Source: a virus
Taxonomy: Duplodnaviria > Heunggongvirae > Uroviricota > Caudoviricetes
Length of the DNA stretch: 6,849 nucleotides
Virus record (IMG/VR): IMGVR_UViG_2617270976_000007
Coordinates: 1 to 6,849 of that record
Strand: one strand, 5' to 3'
Shown piece by piece: positions 253 through 6,849 of this stretch (its first letter is position 1; each line of letters starts with the position of its first letter). The position numbers were made by a program, and so were the translations under genes. Below the pieces are notes generated by a model that ran no database searches, was not told the origin of the DNA, and saw only the letters and a list, made by a program, of their open reading frames with translations.

Positions 253-278
253 TCATTTTTCAGATGGTGGAAAGAACC

Positions 279-2132
279 ATGGCATTTAAACACTATGATG
301 TTGTCAGGGCGGCGTCGCCGTCAGATCTTGCGGAAAAGCTGACACATAAACTGAAAGAGGGCTGGCAGCCGTTTGGTAGTCCGGTGGCCATAACCCCTTA
401 TACCCTGATGCAGGCGATTGCAGCAGAAGGTGATGTGGTCGTCAGTGGTGCAACTGAGCCGGAGTGGTACTACGTCATCGTACTGGCCGGGCAGTCCAAT
501 GCCATGGCTTACGGTGAAGGGCTTCCGCTTCCGGATTCATACGATGCGCCCCATCCGCGCATTAAGCAACTGGCCCGTCGTAACACAGTGACTCCCGGTG
601 GTGAAGTATGCGTATTTAACGACATCATTCCTGCTGACCATTGTCTGCATGATGTTCAGGATATGAGTACGATTAACCATCCCCGGGCTGACCTGAGCAA
701 AGGGCAGTACGGCTGTGTCGGCCAGGGCTTACATATTGCCAAAAAAATGCTTCCGTATATCCCTAATAATGCGGGGATCCTGCTGGTACCATGCTGTCGT
801 GGTGGTTCGGCATTCACCCAGGGCACGGAGGGGACATTCAGCGAGTCCACGGGGGCCAGTCAGGATTCGGCTCGCTGGGGAGTGGGTAAGCCGTTATATC
901 AGGATCTGCTTTTCCGCACGAAGGCAGCATTGCAGAAAAACCCGAAAAACGTTTTGCTGGCGATATGCTGGATGCAGGGGGAATTCGATATGACGAATGC
1001 CAGTTACGCCCAGCAGCCAGCAGCATTTCTTGCAATGGTACAGCAGTTCCGTGCTGACCTTGCCGGGCTGGCAGCGCAGTGTCACGGTGGAAGTCCGGCA
1101 TCAGTCCCCTGGATTTGTGGCGACACGACATACGCGTGGAAACAAGAACACGGTACGCAATATGAAGTGGTATATGGTGCATATAAAGGTAAAGAATCCC
1201 AGCAGATTTATTTTGTTCCCTTTATGACCGATGGTAGCGGAGTTAATACACCGACAAACAACCCGTCAGAAGATCCTGATATTGCCGGGTCTGGTTATTA
1301 CGGTTCGGCATCCCGAACGAACAAAAACTGGGTATCATCAAATCGCCCGACGCATTTCAGCTCATGGGCGCGTCGTGGCATTATTCCCGATCGTATGGCA
1401 ACTGCTATTCTGAACGTAGCCGGGCGCACCTCAGCCTTCATCAGTGGTAAGGCACCGGAAATCAAACCCTCGCCCGGCGGCGACACGCCATCGGTGCCGT
1501 CTGAAGATGCATCCGTACGCACAATCTCCCTGTTGCCGACAGCCGGAGATGCTGCTGCGCAGGGCTGGAGCATTAAGAATGGCGGAATTCAGTTGTCAGA
1601 TGGTGTATTTAAGATCACCAAGCAGAGCAATAAAGCCTGGTCCCTGACGCGCCCGGTGGATGACGCAGTCTCCCTGCTGACACGGGGTGGCAGACTGAGC
1701 TGTAAGTTTCGACTGTCAGGCGCACTGACCAACAACCAGTTCGGTCTGGGAATTTATCTGTATACCGATGTAGCGTTACCTGACGTCGTGGCGATGACCG
1801 GGACTGGTAACCCGTTCCTGATGTCGTTCTTCACCCAGACCACAGACGGCAAACTGAATCTGATGCATCACAAGAAAGCCGGAAACACAAAGTTGGGCGA
1901 GTTCGGGAATTACAGTAACGACTGGCAGACGCTGGAGCTGGTGTTCACCGCCGGCAGTGCCACGGTTACTCCGAAACTGAATGGAGTGGCTGGCCCGGCA
2001 TTCCAGGTCATAAAAGACAGTCTGACAGTGGGACTAAATGCACTGACGCTGACGGATATTACCAAAAATGCAACGTATGGCGTTGAGATAGAAAGTCTGG
2101 TGCTGGAGATAAATGCACCGGCATCATCATAA
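279..2132 (+). CDS. nanS-p: Prophage sialate O-acetylesterase of the NanS/YjhS family (NanS-p-like): N-terminal extension, SGNH/SASA esterase core, C-terminal beta-rich putative carbohydrate-binding domain
   Basis: Long ORF with stop TAA at 2130-2132. The GQSN serine block ([19 protein letters not shown]) and following blocks ([56 protein letters not shown]) match the NanS esterase family as I recall it. About 220 extra C-terminal residues fit the phage-borne NanS-p architecture. Start is uncertain: ATG 279 (GGTGGA 7 nt upstream) or in-frame ATG 264. Confidence 0.8.
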
Positions 2133-2217
2133 AAAGTGAGCCAGTCAAATGGAAGGTATCGTTAAACTCACCGGTAGTGTCAGTGGGTCGTCTGAGACGC
2201 CTGCATGAGTTATCAGA

Positions 2218-2249
2218 GCCATCAGTACTTAACTGGTGGCTTTTTTATT
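2218..2249 (+). terminator. Putative rho-independent terminator between the esterase gene and the holin
   Basis: Stem GCCATCAG (2218-2225), loop TACTTAA, stem CTGGTGGC (2233-2240; 8 bp with one G-U pair), followed by TTTTTTATT (2241-2249). Confidence 0.55.
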
Positions 2250-2281
2250 GTTGTCAGCTTCCGGATAACGGGAGACGGGGT

Positions 2282-2497
2282 ATGTACCAGATGGAAAAAA
2301 TCACAACAGGTGTGTCATACACCACGTCAGCGGTGGGAACGGGCTACTGGTTCCTGCAGTTGCTGGACAGGGTTTCCCCGTCTCAGTGGGCGGCAATAGG
2401 CGTGCTGGGGAGTCTGCTGTTTGGGCTGCTGACATATCTGACTAACCTGTATTTCAAAATCAGAGAGGACCGTCGTAAGGCTGCACGGGGAGAGTAA
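2282..2497 (+). CDS. S: Class II holin (pinholin) of the phage 21 S21 / EssQ type, 71 aa, with dual-start motif
   Basis: [71 protein letters not shown] has two hydrophobic segments and the charged C-terminus [13 protein letters not shown] typical of S21-like pinholins. Met1 and Met4 give the holin/antiholin dual start. GGAG lies upstream. The 106-aa ORF-track version (2177) runs through the terminator and is not the real start. Confidence 0.9.
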
Positions 2498-2501
2498 TTC
2501 A

Positions 2502-2846
2502 ATGACTCAAAACTATGAACTGATTGTGAAAGGGATCCGCAATTTTGAGAATAAAGTTACGGTAACTTTAGCGTTACGGGACAAAAAACGCTTTGACGGT
2601 GAAATTTTTGACCTGGACATCTCGCTGGACCGTGTTGAAGGTGCCGCGCTGGAGTTTTATGAGGCAGCAGCCAGAAGGAGCATCAGACAGGTCTTCCTGG
2701 ATGTTGCTGCCGGGTTATGTGAAGGGGATGAGCAGTCGCCGGAAAAGCGCCCCGTAATTTTAGAGGCGCAGGATGTGTTGATAACCTACAGAGGAAAACT
2801 ACCGGGAATAATTACGGGTTCTCTGAAGAGTCCGCCGAAATGGTAA
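2502..2846 (+). CDS. Small conserved lysis-cassette protein, 114 aa, at the position ydfR (DUF1327) occupies between essQ and rrrQ in Qin-type prophages; function unknown
   Basis: ATG at 2502 is 4 nt after the holin stop, with GGAGAG 7 nt upstream, which implies translational coupling. Placement between pinholin and SAR endolysin matches the essQ-ydfR-rrrQ order. Sequence identity to YdfR was not verified. Confidence 0.65.
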   Translation: MTQNYELIVKGIRNFENKVTVTLALRDKKRFDGEIFDLDISLDRVEGAALEFYEAAARRSIRQVFLDVAAGLCEGDEQSPEKRPVILEAQDVLITYRGKLPGIITGSLKSPPKW

Positions 2847-3189: not shown

Positions 3190-3735
3190 ATGAACGCAAA
3201 AATCAGATACGGCCTGTCGGCTGCCGTTCTGGCGCTGATTGCCGCTGGTGCGCCTGCGCCTGACATTCTCGACCAGTTTCTGGATGAAAAGGAAGGTAAC
3301 CACACCACGGCATACCGTGATGGTGCGGGTATCTGGACCATCTGCCGCGGTGCCATCCTGGTGGATGGCAAACCTGTCGTTCCGGGCATGAAGTTGTCGA
3401 AGGAAAAATGCGACCGGGTTACTGACATGCAGATGCGTCAGCGTGATGTTGCTGCGCTCGATGCAAAATACACGAAGGAGTTAGCTGATGCGAAAGCTGA
3501 AAATGAAACTCTTCGCGCTGACGTTGCCGCTGGTCGTAAGCGCCTGCGTATCAACGCCACCTGTCCAGGTCCCGTGCGTGAAGCCACCGGCACCGCCCGC
3601 GTGGATAATGCAACCGGCCCCCAACTGGCAGACACCGTTACACGGGATTATTTCACCCTCAGAGAGCGGCTGATGACGATGCAGAAGCAACTGGAAGGGG
3701 CGCAGGAATATATCCGTACTCAGTGCCTGAAATAA
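3190..3735 (+). pseudogene. In-frame fusion of SAR endolysin R (RrrQ-like, N-terminal ~76 aa) to the i-spanin Rz C-terminal periplasmic domain; deletion junction near 3419-3424
   Basis: Residues 1-76 (MNAKIRYGLSAAVLALIAAGAPAPDILDQFLDEKEGNHTTAYRDGAGIWTICRGA...KEKCDRV) match the RrrQ/R21-type lysozyme N-terminus, including the SAR-like Ala/Gly-rich segment and the E-x8-D-x5-T catalytic spacing. From TDMQMRQRDVAALDAKYTKELADAKAEN onward the protein matches lambda Rz up to its C-terminus ...LEGAQEYIRTQCLK. The lysozyme C-terminal lobe and the Rz N-terminal membrane anchor are missing. Confidence 0.8.
3488..3673 (+). CDS. Rz1: Rz1 outer-membrane lipoprotein (o-spanin), embedded in the +1 frame of the Rz portion
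   Basis: MRKLKMKLFALTLPLVVSACVSTPPVQVPCVKPPAPPAWIMQPAPNWQTPLHGIISPSESG has a signal peptide with lipobox VSAC and the proline-rich mature region, closely like lambda Rz1. AAGGAG sits 7 nt upstream of the ATG. Confidence 0.85.
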   Translation: MRKLKMKLFALTLPLVVSACVSTPPVQVPCVKPPAPPAWIMQPAPNWQTPLHGIISPSESG

Positions 3736-4085
3736 GTTTTGTTGATGCGCCGTATCGTCGCTGTATTCCCTCATTAACAGAGACCGCAGCCCGACAGGGA
3801 GACTCCTCTGCGCGAGTGTGCGGGGATAATCAAAAACGATACACACCGGGGTTTACCGCGTTAACGGAGCGCGGCGTTGTCCCCTCATAGTCGCCTGTCC
3901 GGTGCGATGGTGGAAGAAACCGGATGTTTATCACTATTAATTGATGACACAGAAATGGATTCATTGAATTTCAGCACGTTTTTGTATTCGTGTTATTGAA
4001 CATCTGTTTATTTTACTTTTAACATATTGATAATAAAAAGAGCTGTAAATCTTTAGATGAGTCGATTTTGTCCGGGGAAGTTCAA

Positions 4086-4226
4086 ATGGATTTTATGCTG
4101 ACGGTTTCTGGTGTGGTTATCCTGTCCATTGCTTATACTGCAGATAAATATGGCTGCCATTTGTTATCACGTATTGGCGCTTATTGTTCGTTGATGCTGA
4201 TTTTCTCGTCGCTTTTTTTTGAGTAA
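4086..4226 (+). CDS. Hypothetical 46-aa hydrophobic small protein (possible membrane peptide); not in the supplied ORF track because it is shorter than 60 aa
   Basis: ATG 4086 with GGGGAAG 5 nt upstream; translation MDFMLTVSGVVILSIAYTADKYGCHLLSRIGAYCSLMLIFSSLFFE, stop TAA 4224-4226. Possible sigma70-like promoter TTGAAC (3996-4001), 18-nt spacer, TAACAT (4020-4025). Lies in an AT-rich stretch between Rz and the cos-proximal gene. Confidence 0.3.
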   Translation: MDFMLTVSGVVILSIAYTADKYGCHLLSRIGAYCSLMLIFSSLFFE

Positions 4227-4358: not shown

Positions 4359-4544
4359 TTACTTAATTATGTAATTCATACCCGAACTCTCTGTTGACAG
4401 CCTTCTTCTGCAGGCTTCAATAACCCACGCTGAAAAGTTTCCTGAACCTTTCAGATCAAGAGCGATGTTAATTTGTTCAATCATCTGGTTTGGAAATCGG
4501 ATGTTGCGGGTTGTTGTTCTGCGGGTTCTGTTCTTTGATGACAT
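4359..4544 (-). CDS. Small cos-proximal protein with predicted ribbon-helix-helix fold, homolog of the lambda right-end small ORF
   Basis: Minus-strand ATG at 4544 with GGGGA 6 nt upstream. MSSKNRTRRTTTRNIRFPNQMIEQINIALDLKGSGNFSAWVIEACRRRL... closely resembles, from memory, the small ORF on the complementary strand near lambda's right end (MSTKNRTRRTTTRNIRFPNQMIEQINIAL...FSAWVIEACRRRL). The beta-strand/helix/loop/helix layout fits an RHH DNA-binding fold. Confidence 0.7.
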   Translation of the reverse strand: MSSKNRTRRTTTRNIRFPNQMIEQINIALDLKGSGNFSAWVIEACRRRLSTESSGMNYIIK

Positions 4545-4721
4545 AATGTTTCCCCATATTCAGTGTTGCTGATTTGTATTATCTGAAGTTGCTTTTACGT
4601 TAATTTGATGCAGATCAATTAATACGATACCTGCGTCATAATTGATTATTTCTCGTGGTTTGATGGCGTACACACATGTTGTGATAAACCTTATATAGAT
4701 GATAATCATTATCATTTTCGT

Positions 4722-4915
4722 GGGTCCTTTCCGGCGATCCGACCGGTTACGGGGCGGCGACCTCGCGGGTTTTCGCTATTTATGAAAATTTTTAGGGAAA
4801 AATCAGATCCGTTCTTCTTCTTTTTAACTGATTGATTATCAATAGAATTTTAAAAATATAAAAGGATCTGACAAAGGCTGTTTTTGTTAGAAAACGCCAT
4901 TTTCAGATCCTTTCT
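4722..4915 (+). other. Lambda-type cos site: cosQ-proximal sequence, cosN (12-nt cohesive end GGGCGGCGACCT at 4752-4763) and cosB with three terminase-binding repeats
   Basis: GGGTCCTTTCCGGCGATCCGACCGGTTACG|GGGCGGCGACCTCGCGGGTTTTCGCTATTTATGAAAATTT is near-identical to the lambda genome-end junction. Three CAGATCC elements (about 4806-4812 direct, 4863-4869 inverted, 4904-4910 direct) have the orientation pattern of lambda R3/R2/R1, immediately upstream of the small terminase gene. Confidence 0.85.
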
Positions 4916-4932
4916 GGTTCCCGGGGGAGTGT

Positions 4933-5481
4933 ATGAACGTCAATAAGAAAAAACTGGCCGATATTTTTGGCGTTGATGTCAGGACCATCACCGCCTGGCA
5001 GAGTCAGGGGTTACCACTAGTTTCTGGTGGAGGGAAAGGGACTGAATCAGTTTTTGATACAACTGCTGCCATTCAGTGGTATGCGCAGAGGGAAGCTGAT
5101 ATTGAAAACGAAAAACTCCGTAAAGAGATCGAGGATTTGAGGGCTGCCAGCGAATCAGACCTTCAGCCCGGCACCATTGATTACGAACGTTACCGACTGA
5201 TGAAGGCACAGGCCGATGCACAGGAGCTGAAAAATGCTCGTGAGGAAGGCCTTGTCCTCGAGACGGAGTTATTTACCTACATCTTTCAGCGAGTGGCACA
5301 GAATATATCAGGGATCCTTGTCCGTGTCCCTCAGACACTGCAGCGTAAATACCCTGATATATCACCCGTACATCTTGATGCTGTGAAAACTGAAATCGCG
5401 AAAGCATCCGATGTGGCTTCTGAAGCCGGTGAGAATGTGCGCAGGTGGATTGATGATTTCAGACGAACTGAGGGCGGCTAA
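4933..5481 (+). CDS. nu1: Terminase small subunit (lambda Nu1 / NohA family), apparently full length, 182 aa
   Basis: [42 protein letters not shown]...[48 protein letters not shown] aligns along its length with lambda Nu1 (MEVNKKQLADIFGASIRTIQNWQEQGMPVLRGGGKG...). It sits directly downstream of cosB and its stop (TAA 5479-5481) overlaps the start of the next gene. Confidence 0.9.
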
Positions 5482-6103
5482 TTCTGCAGGAGCGATAGCA
5501 ACCGGCCTCCTTGCGCTAAAAATTCCTGTCCCTCTGACGACAGTTCAGTGGGCAGATCGACATTATTACCTTCCGAAAGAGTCATCTTACACCCCGGGGC
5601 GGTGGGAAACACTGCCGTTTCAGGTTGCCATCATGAACAGCATGGGGAATGACCGGATCCGCACTGTTAATCTGATTAAATCTGCCCGTGTTGGTTATAC
5701 AAAGATGTTGCTGGGAGTGGAGGCTTATTTTATTGAGCATAAATCACGCAACAGCCTTCTTTTCCAGCCCACGGATTCTGCTGCTGAAGATTTTATGAAA
5801 TCTCATGTGGAACCCACGATCAGGGATGTGCCGGTTTTACTCGATCTTGCACCGTGGTTTGGGCGTAAACATCGTGATAATACCCTCACGCTGAAACGTT
5901 TTTCATCGGGCGTGGGCTTCTGGTGCCTGGGCGGGGCTGCCGCTAAAAACTACCGTGAAAAATCCGTGGACGTGGTCTGCTATGACGAACTTTCCTCGTT
6001 CGAACCGGATGTCGAAAAAGAGGGTTCGCCAACCCTGCTTGGGGATAAACGTATTGAGGGCTCTGTATGGCCCAAGCCGCCGTGCAGGAGAACCAGCGAG
6101 TGA
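5453..6103 (+). pseudogene. A: Terminase large subunit (lambda gpA family), N-terminal ~216 aa only; truncated by an internal deletion with the junction near 6077-6080
   Basis: ...VQWADRHYYLPKESSYTPGRWETLPFQVAIMNSMGNDRIRTVNLIKSARVGYTKMLLGVEAYFIEHK...GFWCLGGAAAKNYREKSVDVVCYDELSSFEPDVEKEGSPTLLGDKRIEGSVWPK matches lambda gpA residues ~35-205. Similarity ends after GSVWPK and the frame stops at 6101-6103, whereas full gpA is about 640 aa. Start codon is uncertain (5453, 5435 or 5411, all in frame). Confidence 0.85.
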
Positions 6104-6569
6104 TGGGGATCCTGACATGCCAGGAAGCGAAAGGACGTGAACAGCTTGCCACGATGCTGGCAGGGCAACAGGGCATGAGCGTTGAACAGGCCCGGGCGAT
6201 TCTGGCCGCGGCGGCACCGCAGCAGCCGGTGGCATCCGCGCAGAGTGAAGCCGATCGCATTATGGCGTGTGAAGAAGCGAACGGTCGTGAACAACTGGCA
6301 GTAACGCTGGCGGCGATGCCGGAGATGACGGTGGAAAAAGCCCGCCCGATCCTGGCTGCTTCACCGCAGGCGAATGCCGGACCATCACTCCGTGATCAGA
6401 TCATGGCCCTGGATGAGGCAAAAGGGGCTGAGGCGCAGGCTGAACAGCTGGCTGCCTGCCCGGGAATGACCGTGGAGAGCGCCCGGGCTGTGCTGGCTGC
6501 GGGATCAGGTAAGGCAGAACCGGTCTCTGCATCCACAACCGCCCTGTTTGAACATTTCATGGCGAACCA
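6079..6569 (+). pseudogene. Fragment of a repeat-containing phage protein (three ~45-aa tandem repeats; possibly the C-terminal region of a head protease/scaffold-type morphogenesis protein); 5' end set by the deletion junction, 3' end interrupted by IS1
   Basis: Frame-1 translation contains three related units: RVMGILTCQEAKGREQLATMLAG..MSVEQARAILAAA; RIMACEEANGREQLAVTLAAMPEMTVEKARPILAAS; QIMALDEAKGAEAQAEQLAACPGMTVESARAVLAAG. The last codons (VMTPTY, stop) are IS1-derived, so the native C-terminus is lost at 6570. Functional assignment is a guess. Confidence 0.4.
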
Positions 6570-6849
6570 GGTAATGACTCCAACTTATTGATAGTGTTTT
6601 ATGTTCAGATAATGCCCGATGACTTTGTCATGCAGCTCCACCGATTTTGAGAACGACAGCGACTTCCGTCCCAGCCGTGCCAGGTGCTGCCTCAGATTCA
6701 GGTTATGCCGCTCAATTCGCTGCGTATATCGCTTGCTGATTACGTGCAGCTTTCCCTTCAGGCGGGATTCATACAGCGGCCAGCCATCCGTCATCCATAT
6801 CACCACGTCAAAGGGTGACAGCAGGCTCATAAGACGCCCCAGCGTCGCC
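6570..6849 (-). mobile_element. IS1 insertion sequence, right-hand portion in reverse orientation (extends beyond the window); terminal inverted repeat GGTAATGACTCCAACTTATTGAT at 6570-6592
   Basis: 6570-6821 is the exact reverse complement of 1-252; starts with the canonical IS1 terminal repeat and encodes InsB on the minus strand. Confidence 0.93.
6585..6849 (-). CDS. insB: IS1 transposase InsB (InsAB' C-terminal portion), 5'-partial; coding continues beyond the window edge
   Basis: Minus-strand translation ...[87 protein letters not shown], stop at 6585-6587; identical to the InsB fragment at 1-237. Confidence 0.9.

Follow-up and report, generated by a model that had tools for sequence, protein, structure and literature searches.

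A triple-repeat reading frame behind a truncated terminase gene is very probably a dead remnant of a phage-21-type head protease/scaffold gene

What is a reading frame built of three related units of some 45 residues, directly behind a broken terminase gene, and could it still do anything? The window analyzed here, 6,849 nucleotides in all, is the whole of draft contig JNQT01000097.1 (GCA_000704325.1), with IS1 at both ends and, between the IS1 copies, late genes of a lambdoid prophage that belongs to the phage-21/Stx-phage type (Table 1). The original prediction, made from the letters of the sequence, could not place the repeat in a known family with confidence; it can be placed as the scaffold (Nu3/gene 6) part of a lambdoid S49 head protease gene. 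We give a rough probability of 93% to the reading developed below, that the stretch from 6076 to 6569 is a dead remnant of a phage-21-type gene of this kind and a case of ordinary prophage decay.

Table 1. Features of the 6,849-nucleotide window
Feature	Position	Strand	Description
IS1 end (3' part of insB and terminal inverted repeat), cut by contig end	1-252	+	InsB C-terminus ORF, PF03400; ...AAGTTGGAGTCATTACC ends at 252
DUF1737/SASA esterase	264-2132		
P21-type holin	2177-2497		
DUF1327 gene	2502-2846		
Lysozyme::Rz ORF, 181 aa	3190-3735	+	Phage_lysozyme at residues 33-85; Phage_lysis at residues 72-179
YlcI-like gene	4359-4544	-	
Terminase small subunit gene, intact (Nu1 / phage 21 gene 1 type)	4933-5481	+	Pfam Phage_Nu1, E = 1.2e-85, full length
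Terminase large subunit gene, truncated	5453-6103	+	208 of 642 native codons, then 8 out-of-frame codons (PPCRRTSE) and stop
Chimeric ORF, 174 aa	6067-6591	+	MAQ (terminase DNA, other frame), C residues 310-473, QVMTPTY from IS1
Deletion junction	6074-6075	.	2-bp microhomology AA common to terminase codon 208 and gene C codon E309
3' part of head protease/scaffold gene (lambda C/Nu3; phage 21 genes 5/6)	6076-6569	+	Codons 310-473 of 501 plus 2 nt
Tri1 box (unit 1 core)	6119-6222	+	M81255.1 5542-5645 via gapless alignment; unit HMM match at residues 5-49
Tri box 2 (unit 2 core)	6259-6369	+	'Tri box', M81255.1 5682-5792; unit HMM match at residues 58-100
Tri3 box (unit 3 core)	6400-6513	+	M81255.1 5823-5936; unit HMM match at residues 105-148
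IS1 end, truncating gene C, cut by contig end	6570-6849	-	Terminus GGTAATGACTCCAACT at 6570; insAB/IS1 match; InsB ORF with PF03400

Comparison with phage genomes by megablast splits the region in two: positions 5400 to 6072 match terminase genes, and positions 6074 to 6569 match a protease/scaffold gene that is annotated variously as "head-tail preconnector protease C / scaffolding domain," "Nu3," or "S49 family peptidase" (phages D2, 21, ev017, 4A7, and others). At the protein level, tblastn finds 95.7-97% identity across all 164 residues to the C/Nu3 proteins of phage 21, ev017, 4A7, D2, PhiR57_1, and others, and 61.7% identity to the Gifsy-1 "lambda gpC homolog"; the homology search proposed along with the original prediction thereby leads to gp5/gp6 of phage 21, at 96% protein identity. 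The PHROG profile phrog_53 (head maturation protease) matches the fragment with E = 2e-61, and the PHROG profiles for head scaffolding protein and capsid assembly protein, which hold a single unit, each match it in three stretches. Pfam and NCBIfam yielded no family for the fragment, no Pfam model covers the tail of the parent protein, and exact look-ups of the 174-aa and 162-aa ORF products returned no match.

Two relatives define what the fragment was. The phage 21 record (M81255.1, genes 5/6) aligns to 6074-6569 without gaps and with 10 mismatches (~98% DNA identity), and it has the same three units in the same order and register; it differs in that the window copy is without codons 1-309 and the last 28, lying instead between an out-of-frame terminase stub and an IS1 end. 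The S49 peptidase gene of a prophage in Escherichia coli 2017C-4173W12 (NZ_CP030768.1; WP_001253935.1) shows 0 mismatches over the 494 nt of the fragment. The terminase part and the C part of the window each show 100% DNA identity with this prophage, so it can be taken as a proxy for the parent before the deletion; the window differs from it in that the prophage retains the full 4,001 bp and a gene C without IS1. The intact parent protein has 501 residues, with a Peptidase_S49 domain (PF01343) at residues 146-293 (E = 1.3e-35), and this domain is absent from the window, where codons 310-473 alone are kept. What the window holds is thus a fragment of a member of the lambdoid head protease/scaffold family, not a functional member. 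In the parent clusters (the NZ_CP030768.1 prophage and phage D2, as in lambda), the head operon runs Nu1-A-W-B-C-D-E; Nu1, a stub of A, and the tail of C are left in the window in native order and orientation, with D and E lost at the IS1/contig end. The counterparts of the intact small-subunit gene are likewise annotated as terminase small subunit in relatives, and the contig contains no portal or major capsid gene.

That the fragment lies directly behind a truncated large-terminase gene, and that a deletion brought it there, can be read in the sequence itself. At the junction the terminase parent reads ...GGCCCAAATCC (in a longer reading, ...TATGGCCCAAATCC), the C parent reads ...ACGGAAGCCGCC (longer, ...ACGGAAGCCGCCGTG), and the window reads ...GGCCCAAGCCGCC (longer, ...TATGGCCCAAGCCGCCGTG). 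The terminase stub is identical in DNA to the intact NZ_CP030768.1 gene up to 6075, and Pfam GpA_ATPase matches it over profile positions 2-160 of 247 only. The boundary between terminase-derived and C-derived DNA is accordingly at 6074-6076, not at 6067 or 6103. Comparison with intact lambdoid head clusters, suggested earlier as a way to the parent gene and the size of the deletion, identifies the S49 peptidase gene and 4,001 bp (the distance between the breakpoints in NZ_CP030768.1, coordinates 7677-11677 of our locus L002). The deletion took out terminase codons 209-642, all of W and portal gene B, and C as far as codon 309, the protease part included. The description of the repeat as fused behind the terminase is right in that the two adjoin; but the frame shifts at the join, which rules out a protein that continues from terminase into the repeat, and the terminase frame ends 8 codons past the junction. 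Also missing from the window copy are the annotated ribosome-binding site (RBS) and first 8 codons (MPQLTATE) of phage 21 gene 6: the RBS and ATG (M81255.1 5464-5468 and 5475) would sit at least 24 nt upstream of the junction, and the window does not contain the nested ORF as such. None of 5,426 complete E. coli genomes contains the junction, and an exact-pattern search of species-representative genomes gave 0 matches.

On the right, the repeat fragment does end exactly at 6569, as first assigned: the next base, 6570, opens the IS1 terminus GGTAATGACTCC. This terminus (GGTAATGACT) falls after the second base of C codon 474; the last 28 residues of C are lost here, with QVMTPTY in their place. 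Both the terminal sequence of IS1 and an InsB reading frame are present at this 3' boundary. The two IS1 copies are inverted relative to each other, each turning its insB-distal terminus toward the prophage segment, and the contig ends are assembly breaks in IS1. The left IS1 end lies 26 nt before the called start of the esterase (279), and the upstream late promoter/Q region, together with any stx locus, is missing from the contig.

Loss of the native start leads to the question of whether the remaining frame could be read at all. The overlap of the terminase stop with an ATG (TGATG; TGA at 6101-6103, ATG at 6103-6105) and the upstream AGGAG (6086-6090) are both where they had been described; the spacer between AGGAG and this ATG is 12 nt, long for a Shine-Dalgarno site. 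Upstream, the C frame is closed by an in-frame TGA at 6055, and the earliest start of the ORF is an ATG at 6067, in terminase-derived DNA, with GAGGG (6056-6060) 6 nt ahead of it. Judged by its sequence setting, the ATG at 6067 is a better candidate start than those first put forward. Alternative starts are GTG at 6100 (the choice of the gene caller) and the ATG at 6103. The deleted native RBS and start have thus been replaced by chance starts at 6067, 6100, and 6103, and it is plausible that translation could begin at 6067, or at 6100 or 6103 by coupling to the terminase stop. A search of the + strand near the ORF at 6067-6591 found no promoter-like site.

The three-fold repeat is real. Pairwise local BLOSUM62 scores between the units are 84-101 (z = 11-16), against 24-26 ± 5 in shuffled controls, and not one of 2,000 shuffles reached the observed score. 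The related units occupy fragment residues 5-49, 58-100, and 105-148 (nt 6088-6222, 6247-6375, and 6388-6519), with between-unit identities of 44-53% in protein and 54-63% in DNA; because DNA identity is so limited, Tandem Repeats Finder does not report the units at the DNA level. The unit size of about 45 aa given at the outset is roughly right, with measured periods of 53 and 47 aa and units of ~45-50 aa. The core motif described then holds exactly in units 2 and 3 and only approximately in unit 1, which departs from it with I-L-T-C-Q-E-A in place of I-M-x-x-E-E-A and M-S-V-E in place of M-T-V-E.

This triple repeat was already known, having been annotated since the phage 21 head-gene record M81255.1 (annotation 1993). 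Gene 6 in that record carries repeat_region features named "Tri1 box," "Tri box," and "Tri3 box," all three with the note "function unknown; putative," and the three tandem units of the window sit at the annotated positions. The original prediction had allowed that a known protein with these repeats would reduce the frame to a routine gene remnant, and the Tri boxes of M81255.1 do just that. The first Tri box follows closely on the annotated, putative start of phage 21 gene 6.

A hidden Markov model (HMM) made from the three units matches lambda C once (residues 357-400, E = 1e-16) and gives three matches in full-length relatives from E. coli and Salmonella (Gifsy-1-type). Identity across proteins is 67% for units at corresponding positions and 50% for those at different ones, from which it follows that the triplication would predate the split of these lineages; by this sequence comparison it is old. 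The array has not been static in all lineages. In one E. coli lineage (protein P0056), units 2 and 3 are 85% identical, compared with 44-58% in other proteins, suggesting that part of the array was re-duplicated, or underwent gene conversion, more recently. Natural variants include one with unit 2 cleanly absent (P0018, a two-unit scaffold ORF of 158 aa), two with 19 aa missing inside unit 2 (P0011 and P0012), and one lacking part of unit 3 (P0010).

The lambda counterpart is similar in setting and different in copy number. Lambda gpC/gpNu3 is encoded by a gene between portal B and decoration D and has the same architecture; residues ~357-400 of lambda C are 47-58% identical to each window unit, and the single lambda unit has the "R(I/V)MGIL" form of unit 1, including the three-residue "MGI" insertion. 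Lambda has this one unit and a longer Ser/Thr/Ala-rich linker, against three units in phages of the phage-21 and Gifsy-1 types. Another difference is the annotated internal start of the scaffold, which is at C residue 239, inside the S49 domain, for lambda Nu3 and at residue 302 (putative) for phage 21 gene 6. Despite one versus three units, lambda Nu3 has 201 aa (L003 833-1438) and phage 21 gene 6 has 200 aa (L004 1477-2079).

What the units do in an intact phage can be approached through lambda, in which C is the prohead protease and Nu3 the scaffold, in the same reading frame, interacting with B, C, E, and itself; portal incorporation needs a scaffold-portal interaction. An AlphaFold2 model of the fragment (from a 15-sequence alignment; pLDDT 57, pTM 0.25) shows each unit as three short helices, with low-confidence linkers between them. 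Foldseek comparison of this pLDDT 57 model with the PDB gave no match with E < 8, and the matches of a sequence-profile search of the PDB were confined to de novo designed helical repeat proteins and noise. Kinship to the designed repeat proteins was considered and set aside, the resemblance being a generic helix-capping pattern (G-x-S/T-x-E-Q-A). Lambda gpNu3 is reported to be intrinsically disordered, and the low-confidence helical model fits a flexible scaffold. P22 gp8-like helical coat-binding domains, short helical modules in a flexible, largely disordered scaffold, serve here as a working analogy with no homology claimed; neither the PDB profile search nor Foldseek gave a sequence or fold match to a P22-type scaffold, and the model is too poor to compare. 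We favor the inference that the Tri units are multivalent helical contact modules of the scaffold tail, a role in capsid binding or self-association drawn from the biology of lambda Nu3 and of other scaffolds.

Other parts of the prophage, and of its relatives, have broken in comparable ways. To judge by the intact relative (L002), in which lysozyme (3624-4157) and Rz (4456-4923) remain two genes, the lysozyme::Rz ORF of the window looks to have lost ~0.75 kb internally and in frame, the second such loss in this prophage; a nested Rz1-like ORF (3488-3673) is kept in the window. A protein search also found many other deletion derivatives of gene C, among them a portal::C fusion, a methyltransferase::C fusion, internal in-frame deletions, and a clean two-unit variant, with breakpoints scattered through the protease domain and units 1, 2, and 3; such scatter means that random prophage decay explains the picture.

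The derivative most like the window is in a Qin-like cryptic prophage of E. coli Z0117EC0005 (NZ_CP098223.1), where another deletion joins terminase A to the C scaffold tail and the right-hand breakpoint lies in the 6 nt (GAAGCC, codons E309-A310) that also hold that of the window. It differs in that the left end is at terminase codon ~538 rather than 208 (~1 kb apart), the microhomology is 6 bp, and the join is in frame; the fusion keeps the complete 3' end of C and is followed by the decoration gene. Its product of 730 aa, A(1-~538)::C(310-501), is encoded at L006 2919-5111 with the junction near L006 4527-4535, and is labeled in RefSeq "phage terminase large subunit family protein." The shared 6-nt right end is a curious coincidence. 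A breakpoint hotspot at the gene 6 start, as two independent deletions ending no more than 6 nt apart might indicate, was considered and rejected, other derivatives breaking at scattered sites.

Could the remnant have been put to use? One proposal is that the chimeric ORF, from its start at 6067, 6100, or 6103 to 6591, is expressed by read-through and retained as a defense, its product a decoy scaffold, devoid of protease and altered at the C-terminus, that poisons head assembly by superinfecting phages of the phage-21 or lambda type. The frame is open for 174 codons with chance start signals, all three units are intact with 0 mutations relative to the functional gene, and the independent in-frame terminase::C fusion of Z0117EC0005 keeps the same units. 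Yet 0 mutations fit a very recent deletion equally well; a junction private to one draft assembly gives no indication that selection has kept the remnant; the ORF is missing its native RBS, its start codon, and its last 28 residues; no promoter-like site accompanies the ORF on the + strand; and other derivatives break both inside and outside the units, as random decay predicts. We consider such a decoy very improbable. A more general conjecture, that protease-less Tri-unit fragments recurring in decaying prophages (the window and Z0117EC0005) are expressed and dominant-negative against superinfecting lambdoid phages, or, in milder form, that one versus three Nu3 units tune scaffold valency, is very improbable as well.

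Doubt might instead fall on the assembly, the terminase-C join being chimeric and the genome holding an intact or otherwise arranged head cluster. The contig is short, draft, and bounded by IS1 at both ends, and its junction recurs neither in the complete E. coli genomes nor in the species-representative set; even so, the join shares just 2 bases, not a repeat that could mislead an assembler, the collection reports the contig for 2 samples, and equivalent natural deletions exist in finished genomes, which together make an artifact as hard to credit as the decoy. The least credible of all is a separate gene, for a repeat protein or a helix-hairpin-helix (HHH) DNA-binding protein, unrelated to head assembly. 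The second half of the unit (L-A-x-x-P-G-M-T-V-E-x-A-R-x-I-L; ~6427-6498, fragment residues 118-141) does give weak HHH matches, PF00633 scoring on unit 3 only (15.4 bits against a gathering cut-off of 24, E = 0.017), and HHH_5 is likewise sub-threshold in the equivalent part of lambda Nu3 (E = 0.14); resemblance to the designed helical tandem-repeat proteins points in the same direction. Against this, the fragment is identical to part of the gene between the portal and decoration genes of intact head clusters, the HHH match lies below the curated cut-off, and the designed-protein matches reflect generic helix capping. The HHH-like stretch is probably generic helix-loop-helix sequence.

Decay of a head protease/scaffold gene, the reading preferred here, gives the following history. 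The intact gene encodes an N-terminal S49 serine protease followed by a helical, flexible scaffold tail with three diverged units of ~45 aa. In the intact phage, these units may bind the major capsid protein and/or self-associate, bringing the protease into the prohead, and would be degraded on maturation. An illegitimate deletion of 4,001 bp at the AA microhomology placed C codon 310 directly behind terminase A codon 208 in a different frame, and an IS1 insertion removed the last 28 codons of C. From the full identity of the 494 nt that survive with the intact gene, we infer that both events were recent. Even if translated from the chance starts, the remnant product most likely does nothing; it could not act in head assembly because the portal gene, the major capsid gene, and the protease domain are absent.

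With this result, what stood as an unplaced repeat protein has its proper name, a pseudogene fragment from the scaffold tail of the lambdoid S49 head protease gene, and both breakpoints are fixed to the base, which aids annotation of the contig. The biological weight of the result is small; the copy number of the Nu3-type unit is a matter of intact phage genes, not of this locus.
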